This document shows, in pieces, positions 1-46,610 of a stretch of DNA of 64,000 nucleotides; positions within the stretch are counted from its first letter, which is position 1, and every line of letters starts with the position of its first letter. The position numbers were made by a program, and so were the translations under genes. The notes under the pieces are model-generated. The model did no database searches. It had not been told where the DNA came from and was given only the letters and a program-made list of their open reading frames with translations. This DNA is from a phage, in NCBI GenBank assembly GCA_012401045.1, contig GCA_012401045.1_4704.2; one strand, given 5' to 3'.

Positions 1-70
1 TGTTGCGTGCTATCTTCTCGTTCATCTTCGGTGCAAGCCCAGCGACAGCTTTGCAGAATCTAGGATCCAT
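1..70 (-). CDS. partial CDS (N-terminal ~23 codons; gene continues beyond window start)
   Basis: Reverse-strand ATG at ~68-70 with AAGGAG about 6 nt upstream; frame open to window edge. Too short to appear in ORF track. Confidence 0.35.
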   Translation of the reverse strand, partial: MDPRFCKAVAGLAPKMNEKIARN

Positions 71-39840: not shown

Positions 39841-41592
39841 ATGAGCGAACAAGAACGAAAACCTAAGAAGAAACTGCTCGGTATTCAATGTCGACACATC
39901 AGCTATAACGAAGCGAACGATGGCAGCAAGAACGACCTCATGATCGCAAAAGAGATCATGTTCTTTGATGACAATACGCAAGCGACGAACCTTCGCTTCT
40001 TTGAGAATTACAAACGTCCGTTTTGGGTGACGGTAGAGAGTAAACGTAAGAACAAATATAAAAAGGAAAGCGAGAAGCTCTCGCATGTGCGTCGCTACGA
40101 TGTCCGCCAAAGCGAACTGGTTGAAAAGATCAGCTCGGTACTTTATAAAAGACGTGCTGACGATAACACCCGTTTACAGCAGCTTGCACGGAGTCCATAC
40201 CTCTATGGAACGGACGTTAGCGCCAGCTGTTATTTAAAAACCCAGTACAACACAAAATGGCCGGAATACGTCGATAAATTACCCGCTTCCATTGCCTGTT
40301 TCGATATCGAAACCGACGTTGTCCACGGACACGGTAAGATCGTTTGTATGTCTATTACAATGGGATACAATGCGATACTTTGCTATACCAAGGACTTCGT
40401 TGGTCATATTCCGAATGCCATTGAGAAAACCCATGAGAAGATTCGATATTACCTGGCCGAACGTCTGAATACCAAAGAAGATCCCCACGCATTCGAAAAA
40501 TATCAGTACGATGTTCGAATCGTAGAAAGCCCGGCACAAGCGGTCATCCAATGCATGCAGAAGGTTCACGAATGGCAGCCGGATTATCTCCTTGGCTGGA
40601 ATATCGCGTTCGATATTCCGCGCATGCTCCAGGCACTGAACGAGGAAGGGTATCGTCCCGAGGATGTTTTCTCCGATCCCCGTATACCACCTAAATATCG
40701 TATTGCTCGCTGGGTACCACCGAAGACCGACAAGGTATCTGCTTCAGGTCGTAAAACCAACCTTACCCTTGAGCAAACCTGGCCGATGTTTTATACGATG
40801 GCTACGTATCAGGTTATGGATGCGATGTGTGGCTATAAGTTCGTTCGTTTAGGAAGACCGGATGAAGGACGCTATTCACTCGATGCGGTGTTAGAGCGAA
40901 ATAAATGCCATACGAAATTAAAAGCTATTCCTGGTACAGAGGGGTTCACGGAGCTTGCCTGGCACGAAGAGATGCAAACGAACCATCAAATCGACTACGG
41001 CGTATATAACCTTTGGGATAACCAGGGTATTGAGGCGTTGGACCAGAAAACAAAAGACTATTCGATGACCATCCCTATCCGTTTAGCGGCGTCGGATTTG
41101 AAAGATTTCAGTTCTAACCCTAAACGTATCTGCGATAAACTTTTCTTCGTTTATCTTAACCGTGGGGAAGTCATGGGATGTACCGCTGACGACATGACCC
41201 AGGAAGAAGATAAGTGGGTTATCTCACGAGCTGGACATATCGTCACATTACCATGCGATCTCATGGCTGACAACGGCATTCATCTCTTCTGGGATATGCC
41301 GAACCTGAGAAGTTATATCCGTCTATTCGTTGCAGACCTTGACATTAGCAGTTCATACCCGAATGGGCAGATCCTGTTGAATCTATCCAGAGCGTGTGTT
41401 TTTCGCGAGCTCTCACGCATTGAGGGCGTCTCTGACTATCAATTCAGGAAGTTAGGTATCAACTTTATTACCGGAGGTAAAACGAACGCTGTAGACTTCT
41501 GTAGAATCGTTTATAAAGCACCATCGATGTTTGAACTTTTAGAACATTTCGATGCAACGCGTCCAAAAGAGGAAGCGCGGACCATCGAATGA
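39841..41592 (+). CDS. family-B DNA polymerase N-terminal fragment: 3'-5' exonuclease domain plus polymerase motif A
   Basis: Exo I FDIETD, Exo II WNIAFD, Exo III YNLWD, then DISSSYP matching motif A (DxxSLYPS); ORF ends ~80 aa later with no motif B or C. Confidence 0.6.
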   Translation: MSEQERKPKKKLLGIQCRHISYNEANDGSKNDLMIAKEIMFFDDNTQATNLRFFENYKRPFWVTVESKRKNKYKKESEKLSHVRRYDVRQSELVEKISSVLYKRRADDNTRLQQLARSPYLYGTDVSASCYLKTQYNTKWPEYVDKLPASIACFDIETDVVHGHGKIVCMSITMGYNAILCYTKDFVGHIPNAIEKTHEKIRYYLAERLNTKEDPHAFEKYQYDVRIVESPAQAVIQCMQKVHEWQPDYLLGWNIAFDIPRMLQALNEEGYRPEDVFSDPRIPPKYRIARWVPPKTDKVSASGRKTNLTLEQTWPMFYTMATYQVMDAMCGYKFVRLGRPDEGRYSLDAVLERNKCHTKLKAIPGTEGFTELAWHEEMQTNHQIDYGVYNLWDNQGIEALDQKTKDYSMTIPIRLAASDLKDFSSNPKRICDKLFFVYLNRGEVMGCTADDMTQEEDKWVISRAGHIVTLPCDLMADNGIHLFWDMPNLRSYIRLFVADLDISSSYPNGQILLNLSRACVFRELSRIEGVSDYQFRKLGINFITGGKTNAVDFCRIVYKAPSMFELLEHFDATRPKEEARTIE

Positions 41593-41635: not shown

Positions 41636-41685
41636 CGAAGCCCCTCCCCCTGGCGGAAGCCGGAGGGAGGGGTGAGGTTTATGCG
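41636..41685. terminator. bidirectional hairpin (CCCCTCCC...GGGAGGGG) between convergent genes
   Basis: Between stop of DNA polymerase fragment gene (+) and stop of 41679..42164 (-). Confidence 0.55.
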
Positions 41686-42164
41686 CGTTCGTTACCAACC
41701 GTTACTTTGTAGTCAGCGTCGGTTAAGAAAATAGACAGGAATCCATGTTCTTTGCAAATCTTACTAAGGATGTCAGCAATGATTTCGTTGATCATCGGCT
41801 TGTTTGCAAGGGCATAGATGTACCCGGGTGTAAAAGAAAGTGCGTGATTGATCATAGGCTCATGAGAAGCCAAGATAAGGATCACGTGATGCTTCCCATC
41901 GTCGGTAACGACCGCTTGCGTAGACACGAAGAAATCAGTGAAGCAGCAGCGATCACAGGCTTTAGGTATATACAAGTCACCCAGAGCTTCGTCACGTGCT
42001 TTTACGTGTGTTTCAGGGGTGATGCTGCTAAGTTGATCTTCAGCGAGATCCAAGACATCCTCAATCGTTTTAAGAATAGCGTTGCGGAAATCCTCACGGT
42101 AGAATGGGATGATATCACGATCGTTCATGTAATCGCCGGATTCGATAGTAAAGTTGATGTTCAT
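41679..42164 (-). CDS. hypothetical protein (161 aa)
   Basis: AGGAG RBS 6 nt before ATG; convergent with DNA polymerase gene across a hairpin terminator. Confidence 0.65.
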   Translation of the reverse strand: MNINFTIESGDYMNDRDIIPFYREDFRNAILKTIEDVLDLAEDQLSSITPETHVKARDEALGDLYIPKACDRCCFTDFFVSTQAVVTDDGKHHVILILASHEPMINHALSFTPGYIYALANKPMINEIIADILSKICKEHGFLSIFLTDADYKVTVGNERA

Positions 42165-42234
42165 TGAATGCTCCTAGTGGTTATGTCGATTGATCGATGT
42201 ATTGATTTATGTTTGAAGGTGTTGTTCACCTTCG

Positions 42235-42699
42235 TTAGATATCGTCATCCGTGGTGCCGTAGGACATATGCTGAATTAATTTTCTCGGCTCGATGAAAAT
42301 ACGACATGTGATAAACACATCGGGATCGTATTGCTCCACGCAACGTCCGAAGGTTTGTTTTGCGGCTTGGCGCATCGATGTTATTTCCTGATCGTTCATC
42401 GCATTATCGAATTCGATGTTGATCGTGATTTTATCGGGAAATAAATAGATAAAGTAATCGCCGCTGATACCACCATCATCAAAGTGACGTTCATTGTAGC
42501 ACTGGACGAGCTTACCTTCACGTTCTTTCTGATACCATCCAAGGATACTATTAAGACCTCTGTCCACGCATTCGAATGCTTGAGTAATAACATCCTCAAC
42601 GACGGATGCAGGCGTGGGACCATTGAATAGACGATCTAAGCGCTTTTTCATCGATTTGGTTTTCTCGTTCATGATTTCTTTTCCTGTTATAATCGGCAT
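42235..42699 (-). CDS. hypothetical small protein (154 aa; alternative start at 42672)
   Basis: First ATG lies inside a hairpin element; internal ATG (codon 10) has AGGA RBS. C-terminal QYDPD resembles the EYDPD paralog family. Confidence 0.6.
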   Translation of the reverse strand: MPIITGKEIMNEKTKSMKKRLDRLFNGPTPASVVEDVITQAFECVDRGLNSILGWYQKEREGKLVQCYNERHFDDGGISGDYFIYLFPDKITINIEFDNAMNDQEITSMRQAAKQTFGRCVEQYDPDVFITCRIFIEPRKLIQHMSYGTTDDDI

Positions 42700-42740
42700 A
42701 CAACCCTTCCCCGGCCTGATGGCTAGGGAAGGGGCTATGC
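42696..42740 (-). terminator. hairpin variant (GCATA-CCCTTCCCC...GGGAAGGGG-CTATGC)
   Basis: Downstream of 42748..43146. Confidence 0.5.
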
Positions 42741-42747
42741 TACGTTG

Positions 42748-43146
42748 TTATGCTTCGCAATCAGCTGAAGGCGTCGCGCCTTTCTTACCAGCGATACACC
42801 AAATCCGACACGCTGGGTAATGGTTAACCTCTAGAGAGCAAGGAATGTTATATTTCTCTTCCAGCGCATAAAGACATTTCGTTAGCTGCTCCAGCGCGTT
42901 CTCGTCGTGTCGTAACGCGTGGTGGCCTAATCGATGTTGGTCGTTCTTTATATACGCCTCGAAGAGAACATGTTGGCGATGTACGCTGACGTTTACAGCC
43001 TCGAGTATAGCTTGGTCGAGCATACGACTAAAGCACATCAACGAGTCAGATACGTTTTCTCGCTTAACCAGATCAATCATGGCGGGAATATACGAATGGT
43101 CGATGTTATCGATGACCGCTTTAGCGACGGAATCAGCAACGTTCAT
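42748..43146 (-). CDS. small protein (~132 aa), paralog of 43183..43578
   Basis: Track ORF starts at GTG (43176); first ATG (codon 11) aligns with the paralog N-terminus; shared EEKYNIP[CF]SLEVN block. Confidence 0.65.
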   Translation of the reverse strand: MNVADSVAKAVIDNIDHSYIPAMIDLVKRENVSDSLMCFSRMLDQAILEAVNVSVHRQHVLFEAYIKNDQHRLGHHALRHDENALEQLTKCLYALEEKYNIPCSLEVNHYPACRIWCIAGKKGATPSADCEA

Positions 43147-43182
43147 CTTTTTAATCCCTAGTTTGTTATTGATCACGTATAT

Positions 43183-43578
43183 TTACTCTTTGACGTCAGT
43201 TGTCGTTTCGACATGCTTCTCACTACTGACGTACCAGAGCAGGTACGCTGGGAAAAGATTGACCTCTAAGCTAAATGGAATATTGTATTTCTCTTCCATT
43301 TTACAGAGATGTTCTTTAAGTAAATTTCTCGCGTCTCTGTCACCACGAACAGAGTGCCAGTCTAGTTCTTTGTTCTCCTTTACCAGGACCTCTACGATGA
43401 TACGTTGCTCGTGAACCTCGGTTTTCACAGTGAAAAGTAAATCGCTGCTATCAAAACGGGTAAAACGAATGTATGAACCAGGTGTTTTTTCTTGTTTAAT
43501 AATATCGATCATGGTAGAAATGCGCGGATGATCGATGTTGTCGTTAACAGCTTTAACGATGGATTCTACAATGCTCAT
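43183..43578 (-). CDS. small protein (131 aa), paralog of 42748..43146
   Basis: AAGGA RBS; paralogy as above. Confidence 0.65.
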   Translation of the reverse strand: MSIVESIVKAVNDNIDHPRISTMIDIIKQEKTPGSYIRFTRFDSSDLLFTVKTEVHEQRIIVEVLVKENKELDWHSVRGDRDARNLLKEHLCKMEEKYNIPFSLEVNLFPAYLLWYVSSEKHVETTTDVKE

Positions 43579-43610
43579 TTTTTATCCTTAATGTTATCGA
43601 TTTGGAAATA

Positions 43611-44378
43611 TTACTTATTTTTGCTTTCTTTATAGACAGTTGTTACCCACGATGGGAAAGCCGGATGGAAACAGAGCGTGAACGTAACTGTCGTATCGTA
43701 TTTAAACGCACAGTTCACTAACCGGGTATCTAACGTTTTCCTTAATCCGTCATCATCGTTATCGATGATGGTCATATCTCTTAATATCCCAAGCACGTTA
43801 ACGCCATCGGGTGTCTGGGTTACGACAAGTCGTCGTAATGGCCCGCATGTATAGTCACGTACAAATCCTTTCTTCGGGTCCGATACCCTGTTTAACGCAT
43901 CGTGATTTTTGATGAATTCATCGGCGATACAATAGGTTTGTTCCCTTGCTTTATCGGGATCGTATTCTGCTAATAGTTCCTTCGTGTCGAACGTTATCAT
44001 GTTATTATCATTCGATTCAGAAGGGAAGCATAAAACTAAACGAACAGGGTACTCGTATTGATCTGTTCTCGTTTCGAAAGCATTAGCTAAACACGGCTTG
44101 TATGCCTTTGCGTCGACATTGTCCAAACATGGATGCAATAATGCATGAATAACGGCACCATCGTCAGTTAAACCGAATTCCAGAAATTGTACCCTATCAG
44201 TATCCGCTACGGTTTTCTGAAGGTACGCTTTACCGTTAACAATATCGGTATCCCACATATCGTCGTTTAACGATTCTTCAAACTTATCGAATATATGGTT
44301 TACGAGATTGACGAGTTCATCAATACGGCACTGTTGGTTGAATTCGATTAATCGTTGAACTTTATCTTTGATAGACAT
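43611..44378 (-). CDS. hypothetical protein (255 aa) related to the EYDPD small-protein family
   Basis: Contains LAEYDPD block shared with 44381..44839, 44839..45300 and 45372..45866. Confidence 0.65.
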   Translation of the reverse strand: MSIKDKVQRLIEFNQQCRIDELVNLVNHIFDKFEESLNDDMWDTDIVNGKAYLQKTVADTDRVQFLEFGLTDDGAVIHALLHPCLDNVDAKAYKPCLANAFETRTDQYEYPVRLVLCFPSESNDNNMITFDTKELLAEYDPDKAREQTYCIADEFIKNHDALNRVSDPKKGFVRDYTCGPLRRLVVTQTPDGVNVLGILRDMTIIDNDDDGLRKTLDTRLVNCAFKYDTTVTFTLCFHPAFPSWVTTVYKESKNK

Positions 44379-44380
44379 GA

Positions 44381-44839
44381 TTACCCATTAGCTCCTTCTT
44401 CGTCTGGAGAGTATTCCATCGTGTAGAATTCATAACCATCGGAAAACTTGAGTGTTAATGTAATAGGGAAATCGCACGGCATAGCTGATTTCGTAAATGC
44501 GTTATTAGCAACATCAGCCAACCGACGTATAGCATCAGTCCCGCTGACGCTGAACGGTAGTTGTATGTTGATAAGGATGCGGTGCTTGTAAACATGGAAA
44601 ACAACGGTACTGTCAAGATAAACGCTATGGAACGGTATTGTTGGGATGCGTTCCACAATGGAAAAATACGTCCCGTCATTATCGCTATGCCCCATCGACC
44701 AAATATCGGATTTGCGTAGATTTTGTTTGAGGGATTCGATACTTCGAGTGACGGTCTCATCAACAGGCGTGACGTAAGTGTCTTTATGCGAGTCGAAAAG
44801 TTCGTTGACGTTAGATTCGAATGAATACATTGTTGCCAT
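44381..44839 (-). CDS. small paralogous protein (152 aa), EYDPD family
   Basis: QLPFSVSG and EYSPDEE blocks shared with the downstream paralog; 1-nt overlap coupling. Confidence 0.65.
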   Translation of the reverse strand: MATMYSFESNVNELFDSHKDTYVTPVDETVTRSIESLKQNLRKSDIWSMGHSDNDGTYFSIVERIPTIPFHSVYLDSTVVFHVYKHRILINIQLPFSVSGTDAIRRLADVANNAFTKSAMPCDFPITLTLKFSDGYEFYTMEYSPDEEGANG

Positions 44840-45300
44840 TATTCTACCTCTTTCTTCATCTTCATCGGAACAGAGAGTGCTGTTATCTCTGTTCCATTAT
44901 CCGGTTCATACTCCAATGTAACGAGATTGCAGCCATCCGATAATTCATAATCGATCGCTAGGGGGAACGAGATACCGTGCGACTTTATGCATTTACCAAA
45001 TGTCTCGTTGGCTGTATACATTAGAAGTTGCTTTGCGGCAAGCCCGTTTACGCTGAAAGGTAATTGTGCTGTCGCAGCGATACGATTATTGTAAACTCTG
45101 ATATCGGTGATATCTACAATCGTAGCATTGCCGTGTTGTGTTGTTGGAACGGATAGGTTGTAGAAGTAAGGTTCGGAGTCGGAATCGGGCTCGTTAAATA
45201 ATTCCCAGCACCCGTCCTCCTGCAATCTTACTTCGAGTATTTCAAAGCTTTTAATTATCGATTCTACCAGCTGCTCACCGTAAGAATCCCATGTCGTCAT
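44839..45300 (-). CDS. small paralogous protein (153 aa), EYDPD family
   Basis: QLPFSVNG and EYEPDNG blocks. Confidence 0.65.
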   Translation of the reverse strand: MTTWDSYGEQLVESIIKSFEILEVRLQEDGCWELFNEPDSDSEPYFYNLSVPTTQHGNATIVDITDIRVYNNRIAATAQLPFSVNGLAAKQLLMYTANETFGKCIKSHGISFPLAIDYELSDGCNLVTLEYEPDNGTEITALSVPMKMKKEVE

Positions 45301-45371
45301 TTTTTAACACCTTCGACACCTTTTAACCGATACGTGTCCCATCTAACAAGGGACACGATATCGTTGATTAA

Positions 45372-45866
45372 TTACTCTTCTGTGTTTTCATTGTCAGGAT
45401 CGTAGTGGAATTCGAACAGCCCTGAACCGTCGTGTCCGTTGATTGTTAGTATAACGGGCATATCGAATCCTCGGACACGCGAATGAAAACATTGTGCTAA
45501 TTTTAGTTTGGCGTATGCCGCTACTTCATTGACAGCAATACACGATTCACCTGTTATACTCAGTATAACGTCGATACTAACAACGTTGTCGTGCAACGCA
45601 AAACGCCAGCGATCGATACGATTATTATCTTTATCGGTTGTCTCGTTTACGAGATAGACTTTATCGTCAACCGACAAAGCGGGACTCCAGCAACGATCGT
45701 TTATTAAATTCGCCTGGAGTTTTAGTATCGTCTGATCGATAATATCCCAACACGTAACCAGCGTGGTGTCAGGCACTGAGTAGAGAAGGGCGTGCACTTT
45801 ATCCTTTATTTTAAGTGCTTCCGCAGGACGTCCGCAAATACCATGCATTTCAACTTTCTTATTCAT
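45372..45866 (-). CDS. small paralogous protein (~164 aa), EYDPD family
   Basis: Track ORF starts at GTG (45872); ATG is codon 3; C-terminal FEFHYDPDNEN block. Confidence 0.6.
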   Translation of the reverse strand: MNKKVEMHGICGRPAEALKIKDKVHALLYSVPDTTLVTCWDIIDQTILKLQANLINDRCWSPALSVDDKVYLVNETTDKDNNRIDRWRFALHDNVVSIDVILSITGESCIAVNEVAAYAKLKLAQCFHSRVRGFDMPVILTINGHDGSGLFEFHYDPDNENTEE

Positions 45867-45909
45867 ATTCACTTCTTTCTTAATCTAAATGTTAGTTGGG
45901 GTGGGATGT

Positions 45910-46512
45910 TTACATGCTTTCTAGCATATTGACGATCATGGAACCCATACCGAAACTCGGTCTTTCACCGATGTACTCAGCAAGCTGGCGATGGACGTCT
46001 TTTGGATTTCCTTCTTCACCATCGGCATCGATGTAAACCGAAAAAGAAACCGAATCGGAATCCACGCTGATAACCAGACGACGTTCATTGCGTTCCTTGA
46101 GCGTGTCGACGATAGATGCTTTCAGTACCGGGATCGCATTCATCGCGTGCAAGATATCTCCATCGGGTTTCGGCAGATCGATCTTTTCTTTCAGGTCGAT
46201 ATTGATGTTGGTTACAATTGGATTGAGGTCGACCTTGACATAATCGTTAGGATACATGCGAATAATCGCACGATCGATATCTGAGCCGTAAAAGTCAACA
46301 CGCGGCTTTAACACTTCTTTGTTTGGATCCATGTTTTCATCCATCCCAGCCTGCAAGAAACGTTCTACGTTATCCAGTTCACGATAAACTGACGCTTCGA
46401 TTTCTTTCAGATAGTTGGCTGCGGTTTCATGTTCTTTACGCAGCTCGTCTTTAAGGAGCTGTACGGTGGTTTCACTGGAACGGATGCTGTTCGCGAATTG
46501 TGTAATTGACAT
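45910..46512 (-). CDS. hypothetical protein (~200 aa)
   Basis: Track ORF starts at TTG (46542); first ATG (codon 11) has AAGGA RBS 7 nt upstream. Confidence 0.65.
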   Translation of the reverse strand: MSITQFANSIRSSETTVQLLKDELRKEHETAANYLKEIEASVYRELDNVERFLQAGMDENMDPNKEVLKPRVDFYGSDIDRAIIRMYPNDYVKVDLNPIVTNINIDLKEKIDLPKPDGDILHAMNAIPVLKASIVDTLKERNERRLVISVDSDSVSFSVYIDADGEEGNPKDVHRQLAEYIGERPSFGMGSMIVNMLESM

Positions 46513-46610
46513 ATCGAATTCCTTAAATTCTCTTGAGTTCAATTAATGATGAAAAGCTGTAAAAAAAGGTGGGGCGAACCCCACCAAAACGTCAGACACA
46601 CGCAGGAAAA

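Follow-up and report, generated by a model that had tools for sequence, protein, structure and literature searches.

A divergent family-B DNA polymerase (PolB) encoded in two pieces was first predicted for the phiKZ group of phages in 2011, with the exonuclease and the polymerase as separate chains and both catalytic aspartates (EL D229 and D398) put in the polymerase chain (Kazlauskas and Venclovas, 2011; PMC3201878). Such an enzyme has been termed a 'split subunit DNA polymerase' (PMC5105663) and is regarded as characteristic of the jumbo phages of 'group 1' (PMC7824862). According to the abstract of a bioRxiv preprint of 1 October 2026 (Basu et al.; PMC13648687), the two PhiKZ chains, DNAP-N and DNAP-C, are homologous to B-family polymerases, as seen in a 2.1 Å cryo-EM structure, and a third subunit of the polymerase, Rhc, combines an RNase H domain with a fused clamp-like domain. 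Other naturally split PolBs include those of the T4-like phages 44RR, 25, 31, 65 and 133 (gp43A/gp43B), the PolB of Methanothermobacter and that of phage RM378 (PMC3061061).

Here we analysed an open reading frame in a 64,000-nucleotide stretch of phage DNA, further referred to as the window. ORF 39841-41592 is, with very little doubt, an intact gene for DNAP-N, a subunit of a two-piece family-B DNA polymerase, in a Goslar-like nucleus-forming jumbo phage. The split PolB is the arrangement used by all nucleus-forming (phiKZ-like) jumbo phages and has already been described; this is an ordinary DNAP-N gene of a Goslar-like chimallivirus. Our sampling of broad sequence sets assigns the motif A aspartate to DNAP-N, and the remaining interest lies in this placement of motif A and in the intron-homing polymorphism found there.

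Gene structure and genomic context

Megablast identified the chimallivirus vB_EcoM_Goslar, a nucleus-forming jumbo phage of Escherichia, as a close relative of the window, with 96-99% nucleotide identity. Base 1 of the window corresponds to Goslar base 41555, and the two sequences are 99.1% identical in the initial 3 kb and 96.3% identical in ORF 39841-41592, the counterpart of Goslar gp068, which is annotated as 'DNA polymerase'. The ORF begins with ATG, encodes 583 aa followed by a stop codon, and stands in the ORF list as a lone long plus-strand frame, flanked on both sides by minus-strand ORFs. Its product matches PHROG 3011 ('DNA polymerase') at E 7.8e-178, residues 8-576 spanning positions 5-570 of the 576-position profile. 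The tblastn search with this protein returned 291 phage records, all from phiKZ-like jumbo phages, 287 of them with at least 80% query coverage; phiKZ-type phages are matched at ~39% identity over 95% of the length. A search of a large protein database yielded 210 homolog clusters, mostly of 560-640 aa, and one protein (P0001) is 99% identical to the product. Given the full-length match to PHROG 3011 and the lengths of the homologs, the stop codon represents the normal end of the family and not a truncation.

Immediately downstream of the DNAP-N gene, nine small ORFs (131-255 aa) are arranged in tandem on the minus strand (41679-46542). They comprise at least two paralog groups, namely 42748/43183 (38% identity) and 44381/44839/45372. 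Goslar covers 49% of the 42200-46600 segment, which holds most of this run, at 88.7% identity, and the segment is ~2 kb longer in the window; it is therefore a variable region. Scans for sigma-70 promoters and terminators around the gene yielded fewer promoter-like sites than shuffled sequences and nothing at the gene ends. Since chimalliviruses rely on RNA polymerases of their own, the scan is uninformative.

Exonuclease motifs, motif A and membership in family B

An earlier note on this DNA, made from the letters alone, had recognized FDIETD, WNIAFD, YNLWD and DISSSYP in a 583-aa product that stops early. This description holds: the four motifs are found at the positions given in Table 1, and the chain ends 76 residues past P507 of motif A. 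The residues listed there as invariant are those conserved throughout an alignment of 50 sequences of the DNAP-N family (A1). The exonuclease motifs answer to the PolB patterns DxE (Exo I), Nx2-3(F/Y)D (Exo II) and YxxxD (Exo III), and motif A agrees with DxxSLYPS at its invariant D, Y and P.

Table 1. Features of the DNAP-N gene (positions in the window)
Feature	Position	Strand	Description
DNAP-N, complete CDS	39841..41592	+	N-terminal domain, 3'-5' exonuclease domain and first palm segment with motif A
Exo I, FDIETD, aa 154-159	40300..40317	+	D155 and E157 invariant (50 homologs); aligned to RB69 D114/E116
Exo II, WNIAFD, aa 253-258	40597..40614	+	N254 and D258 invariant; aligned to RB69 'WNVESFD', D222
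Exo III, YNLWD, aa 389-393	41005..41019	+	Y389 and D393 invariant; aligned to RB69 Y323/D327
Motif A, DLDISSSYP, aa 499-507	41335..41361	+	D499, D501, Y506 and P507 invariant; RB69 'FDLTSLYPS', D411/Y416/P417
Empty homing site	41337..41338	+	Goslar 1762-nt group I intron inserted between these bases (D499|L500)
C-terminal 60 residues, aa 524-583	41410..41589	+	Helical, without RB69 gp43 counterpart

The Pfam model DNA_pol_B_exo1 matches the ORF below its gathering threshold (16 bits vs the 23-bit cutoff, E 0.0082). Despite this, homology to family-B polymerases is supported by profile alignment and fold comparison. With the DNAP-N family profile, hhalign gave a single colinear alignment of residues 147-523 to residues 106-433 of RB69 gp43 (probability 97.2%, E 3.5e-11), in which Exo I, II and III as well as motif A are all placed. 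HMMER, run with the A1 profile against PDB sequences, recovered RB69 gp43 (E 3.3e-7) as three colinear segments; the final one pairs 'irahvaDLDvsstYPnteavlNiskett' with RB69 403-431 and so includes motif A. The D-x4-Y-P spacing of this motif is exact in DNAP-N and is followed by NIS-x-ET, as in RB69. We conclude that the exonuclease motifs and motif A of the ORF are not chance look-alikes; D501 is the predicted metal-binding aspartate of motif A.

The AlphaFold2 (AF2) model of DNAP-N (pLDDT 85.6, pTM 0.79) is confident over residues 7-450. In Foldseek comparisons it retrieved RB69 gp43, T4 gp43 and Pol epsilon at E ~3e-12 and probability 1.0 over ~450-510 columns. The stretch around motif A (residues 496-516) has pLDDT <50 in this model of the isolated chain, which would be expected for a palm strand that needs the palm of its partner.

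Motifs B and C and the partner subunit

Motifs B and C are not located on ORF 39841-41592 itself, and the claim of the earlier note that no ORF of the window carries them proved correct. When the six frames were scanned with regular expressions, neither a KxxxNSxYG-like nor a DTDS-like motif turned up in any long open frame of the window. Hmmsearch with the polymerase-subunit profile gave no match to its six-frame translation at E<=10, whereas Goslar gp244 is recovered with this profile at 1e-271. At the left end of the window (1-70, minus strand) lies the start of an ortholog of Goslar gp039, a gene that continues beyond this end. Goslar gp039 (598 aa, PHROG 2943) is annotated as 'polymerase'; we considered it as the missing half and rejected it, as it shows no Pfam hit, no PolB motifs and no match to the DNAP-C profile.

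Goslar gp244, annotated as 'DNA polymerase' (174314-176467, minus strand, 717 aa), scores E 2.4e-204 with Pfam PF20286 divDNApol ('Divergent Family B DNA polymerase') and also matches PHROG 2927. Its sequence carries KLDNNSLSG as motif B (K152/N156/S157/G160) and SDTDS as motif C (S404-D405-T406-D407-S408). Since motifs B and C are thus borne by another polypeptide in Goslar, the product of ORF 39841-41592 is a PolB subunit and not a complete PolB.

In an alignment of 50 diverse sequences of the DNAP-C family (A2), the invariant residues are R122, K126, K152, N156, G160, S404-D405-T406-D407-S408, K484 and Y486. The two aspartates of SDTDS are the only invariant ones; the best others between motifs B and C reach 62-86%. 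We take the spacing of R122, K126, K152 and N156 to represent both fingers helices of PolB, and K484..Y486 forms a KKRY-like motif. In RB69, the segments matched by the A2 profile are 439-505, 553-570 and 706-755; the profile also aligns with the fingers and palm of yeast Pol delta, and its hhalign alignment extends over RB69 616-767. The AF2 model of gp244 (pLDDT 90.3), for which RB69 and T4 gp43 are the best PDB matches, contains long helices at 110-134 and 138-163, the motif C hairpin at 401-411, and a thumb. In gp244 and in the metagenomic protein P0121, an all-helical insertion of ~190 residues (206-395), with no counterpart in RB69, follows the post-motif-B helix and precedes the motif C hairpin. 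Goslar also has 'YYDCD' at the canonical position of motif C, a sequence that is not conserved across the DNAP-C family.

Hmmsearch of six-frame translations showed that Goslar has a single locus each for DNAP-N and DNAP-C, and no full-length PolB that includes an exonuclease domain was found in this genome. The gp244 gene is located ~91 kb from the DNAP-N gene, on the opposite strand and outside the region that matches the window. By analogy with the 96-99% identical Goslar genome and with 99%-identical metagenomic proteins (P0121), the phage of the window probably encodes a corresponding DNAP-C. A candidate ortholog of Rhc is also present in Goslar, namely gp190 ('ribonuclease', NC_048170 233087-234613; 508 aa, RNase HI domain).

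Position of the split and the polymerase active site

DNAP-N aligns with RB69 gp43 up to residue 433 and DNAP-C from residue 439. On the DNAP-N side, the hhalign alignment stops at aa 523, which equals RB69 433; on the other, the DNAP-C profile meets RB69 439 only from its position 80, so that ~80 N-terminal residues are without an RB69 counterpart. Judged by these alignments, the break falls between RB69 433 and 439, that is, past the motif A helix and ahead of the hairpin leading into the fingers. The C-terminal 60 residues of DNAP-N are modelled by AF2 as helices 532-557, 563-573 and 576-582. They may serve as a docking element for the polymerase subunit and probably form, together with the first ~80 residues of DNAP-C, the interface of the two subunits.

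In DNAP-C, invariant aspartates occur only in SDTDS, and an invariant D-x4-YP is present on DNAP-N; from this we infer a composite polymerase catalytic centre, to which DNAP-N would contribute motif A, and DNAP-C motifs B and C. Besides its N-terminal domain, DNAP-N supplies a proofreading 3'-5' exonuclease (D155, E157, D258, D393) and, in the first palm element, the motif A aspartate D501. DNAP-C, in turn, supplies both fingers helices (R122, K126, K152, N156) and the thumb, along with the hairpin of motif C (D405, D407) and the KKRY-like motif (K484..Y486). The two would act as obligatory subunits that assemble 1:1 into one replicative enzyme, a step modelled on PhiKZ, for which the abstract of the structure paper reports a stable 1:1 complex of DNAP-N and DNAP-C with activity (PMC13648687). 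If the active site is indeed built from both chains, this explains why DNAP-N and DNAP-C are obligatory partners.

The placement of EL D229 and D398 from 2011 (PMC3201878) conflicts with a motif A located on DNAP-N. In the literature, the PhiKZ structure paper being represented by its abstract, we found no explicit statement that motif A sits on the exonuclease chain. A catalytic centre composite across two chains has good support at the sequence level and would correct the 2011 domain assignment; jointly with the homing of introns into motif A discussed below, it is put forward tentatively.

A group I intron in Goslar and the intron-less allele of the window

In megablast, the ORF matches Goslar gp068 directly over no more than its initial 1493 nt, and the remainder is found ~1.8 kb further on. 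Alignment of the junctions showed that in Goslar an insertion of 1762 nt (NC_048170 81187-82948; L001 9498-11259) separates codon D499 from L500. Within it lie the HNH_3/NUMOD1 endonuclease gene gp069 and the core of a group I intron (Rfam RF00028 Intron_gpI, 44.7 bits, E 1.5e-9). In keeping with group I splice sites, U is the last base of the 5' exon and G that of the intron. Reconstruction of the spliced Goslar gene gives a product of 583 aa that differs from the protein of the window at 3 residues of 583. As splicing restores the same 583-aa product, the Goslar intron is unrelated to the lack of motifs B and C. The RefSeq entry for gp068 (YP_009820753, 499 aa) corresponds to exon 1 only, the intron and exon 2 being unannotated; it is thus truncated by an unannotated self-splicing intron.

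In the window, the ORF is continuous across the site of the Goslar intron and represents the intron-less allele. No Rfam family, introns included, reaches its threshold in the window, and Pfam detects no intein/Hint domain. With the ORF as query, phmmer retrieved nothing from PDB but an intein (E 0.43, residues 386-465); this reading was dropped, as the match is insignificant and these residues lie in the part around Exo III that is modelled with confidence and aligned to RB69. The exons of the window and Goslar are ~95% identical (81 mismatches in 1752 nt). Within ~60 nt on either side of the intron site (41281-41400) we counted 30 of the 81 differences, every one of them synonymous. Such clustering resembles that of a co-conversion tract or of an endonuclease target that has been recoded.

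Similar interruptions appear in other members of the family. Among the 120 homolog clusters listed, 17 gene calls end at '...HVAD' or '...HVADLD'. Two cases were inspected, both from distant metagenomic relatives (38-40% identical); in these, the intron is located ~two codons downstream of the Goslar position, after D501, so that exon 1 ends in HVADLD* and exon 2 restarts with 'IVSTYPN'. One of them (L010, 479-3700) contains an HNH gene and an Rfam intron match of 75.8 bits; the other (L008, 4001-6150) is without an endonuclease gene and has an Rfam intron match of 27 bits. A second insertion site is suggested by four further homolog gene calls, which end near residue 463 ('DDWI').

Group I introns like these typically target catalytic-site sequences (PMC12908238). 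It is conceivable, though we consider the joint reading with a composite catalytic centre somewhat doubtful, that group I introns home recurrently into the motif A codons of DNAP-N in chimalliviruses, with at least two insertion points two codons apart and with or without an HNH gene. The locus would then be a second arena, after the RNA polymerase intron of PhiPA3/PhiKZ, of intron-endonuclease interference between co-infecting nucleus-forming phages. If so, the recoded site of the window would be either a susceptible target or a resistant variant.

Alternative explanations

Two other readings of the ORF were weighed against that of an intact DNAP-N subunit. It could be a stand-alone proofreading exonuclease subunit, in which DLDxxxxYP is vestigial or coincidental and the polymerase chain has a motif A aspartate of its own. 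This would agree with the 2011 paper, where the two activities are on separate chains and the polymerase chain has two active-site aspartates, EL D229 and D398 (PMC3201878). However, no column of the 50 polymerase-chain homologs other than those of SDTDS holds an invariant aspartate (62-86% at the remaining ones between motifs B and C), and the polymerase-chain profile meets RB69 only from residue 439, downstream of motif A. Conversely, D499, D501, Y506 and P507 are invariant in the exonuclease chain, with the exact spacing of motif A and NIS-x-ET thereafter, and it is into these codons that group I introns, whose typical targets are catalytic-site sequences (PMC12908238), home repeatedly. We regard an exonuclease-only subunit as very unlikely.

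Even less probable, to the point of being almost negligible, is a truncated or interrupted polymerase gene, i.e., one in which an intron, an intein, a frameshift or an assembly break precedes a contiguous downstream remainder. At motif A, the copy in Goslar does carry a group I intron that harbours a homing endonuclease gene, its RefSeq product is a 499-aa fragment, and ~17 of the 120 clusters listed likewise stop at '...HVAD(LD)'. Yet the ORF of the window runs through the intron site and ends with the family profile (570 of 576), neither an Rfam intron in the window nor a Pfam Hint/intein domain was detected, the ORFs downstream lie on the minus strand, and similarity to the polymerase half is absent from every frame of the window. 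The spliced Goslar gene still gives only 583 aa, and DNAP-C has its own start codon and ~80 N-terminal residues that lack an RB69 counterpart. Between the two options offered by the earlier note, an intein, intron or frameshift can be set aside on the continuous ORF and the lack of intron and intein matches. A split into separate polypeptides, as in phiKZ relatives, the option that the note put first, is supported by the full coverage of PHROG 3011, more than 200 homolog clusters, the free-standing partner gene in Goslar and the literature. Neither outcome that would have refuted the note was obtained: its exonuclease motifs do align in profile searches, and Goslar encodes no full-length polymerase with an exonuclease of its own. 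For annotation, this means that the '583-aa polymerase fragment' is a functional DNAP-N subunit and neither a pseudogene nor an assembly error, and that its partner is to be looked for in another part of the genome.

Comparison with known split and single-chain polymerases

Goslar gp068 is orthologous to the window gene and occupies the same genomic position. It differs by the intron and gp069 between codons 499 and 500, both lacking from the allele of the window. With DNAP-N/DNAP-C of PhiKZ, the polymerase of the window shares the family (PHROG 3011) and, judging from Goslar, presumably the encoding by two distant genes and a divDNApol partner, whereas the phage itself belongs to a different genus (Goslarvirus-like, with E. 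coli as host). The phiKZ-type DNAP-N ortholog is longer, 638 aa in phage SL2 compared with 583 aa in the window. As for the catalytic aspartates, the 2011 paper has both in the polymerase chain, while our alignments put motif A on DNAP-N.

RB69 and T4 gp43 have the same fold and the same order of elements, with Exo I-III and A falling on DNAP-N and the fingers, B, C, KKRY and thumb on DNAP-C. In contrast to gp43, which is one polypeptide, the type found in the window is cut between RB69 433 and 439, with ~60 extra residues on one side of the cut and ~80 on the other, and DNAP-C has a helical insertion of ~190 aa relative to RB69/T4 gp43. Like the enzymes of the T4-like phages 44RR, 25, 31, 65 and 133, of Methanothermobacter and of RM378, that of the window would be a PolB made from two separately translated chains; its split sits between motif A and the fingers. 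The cistrons of the T4-like gp43A/gp43B pairs are 2 bp to 3 kb apart, whereas those of the Goslar gene pair are separated by ~91 kb and lie on opposite strands.
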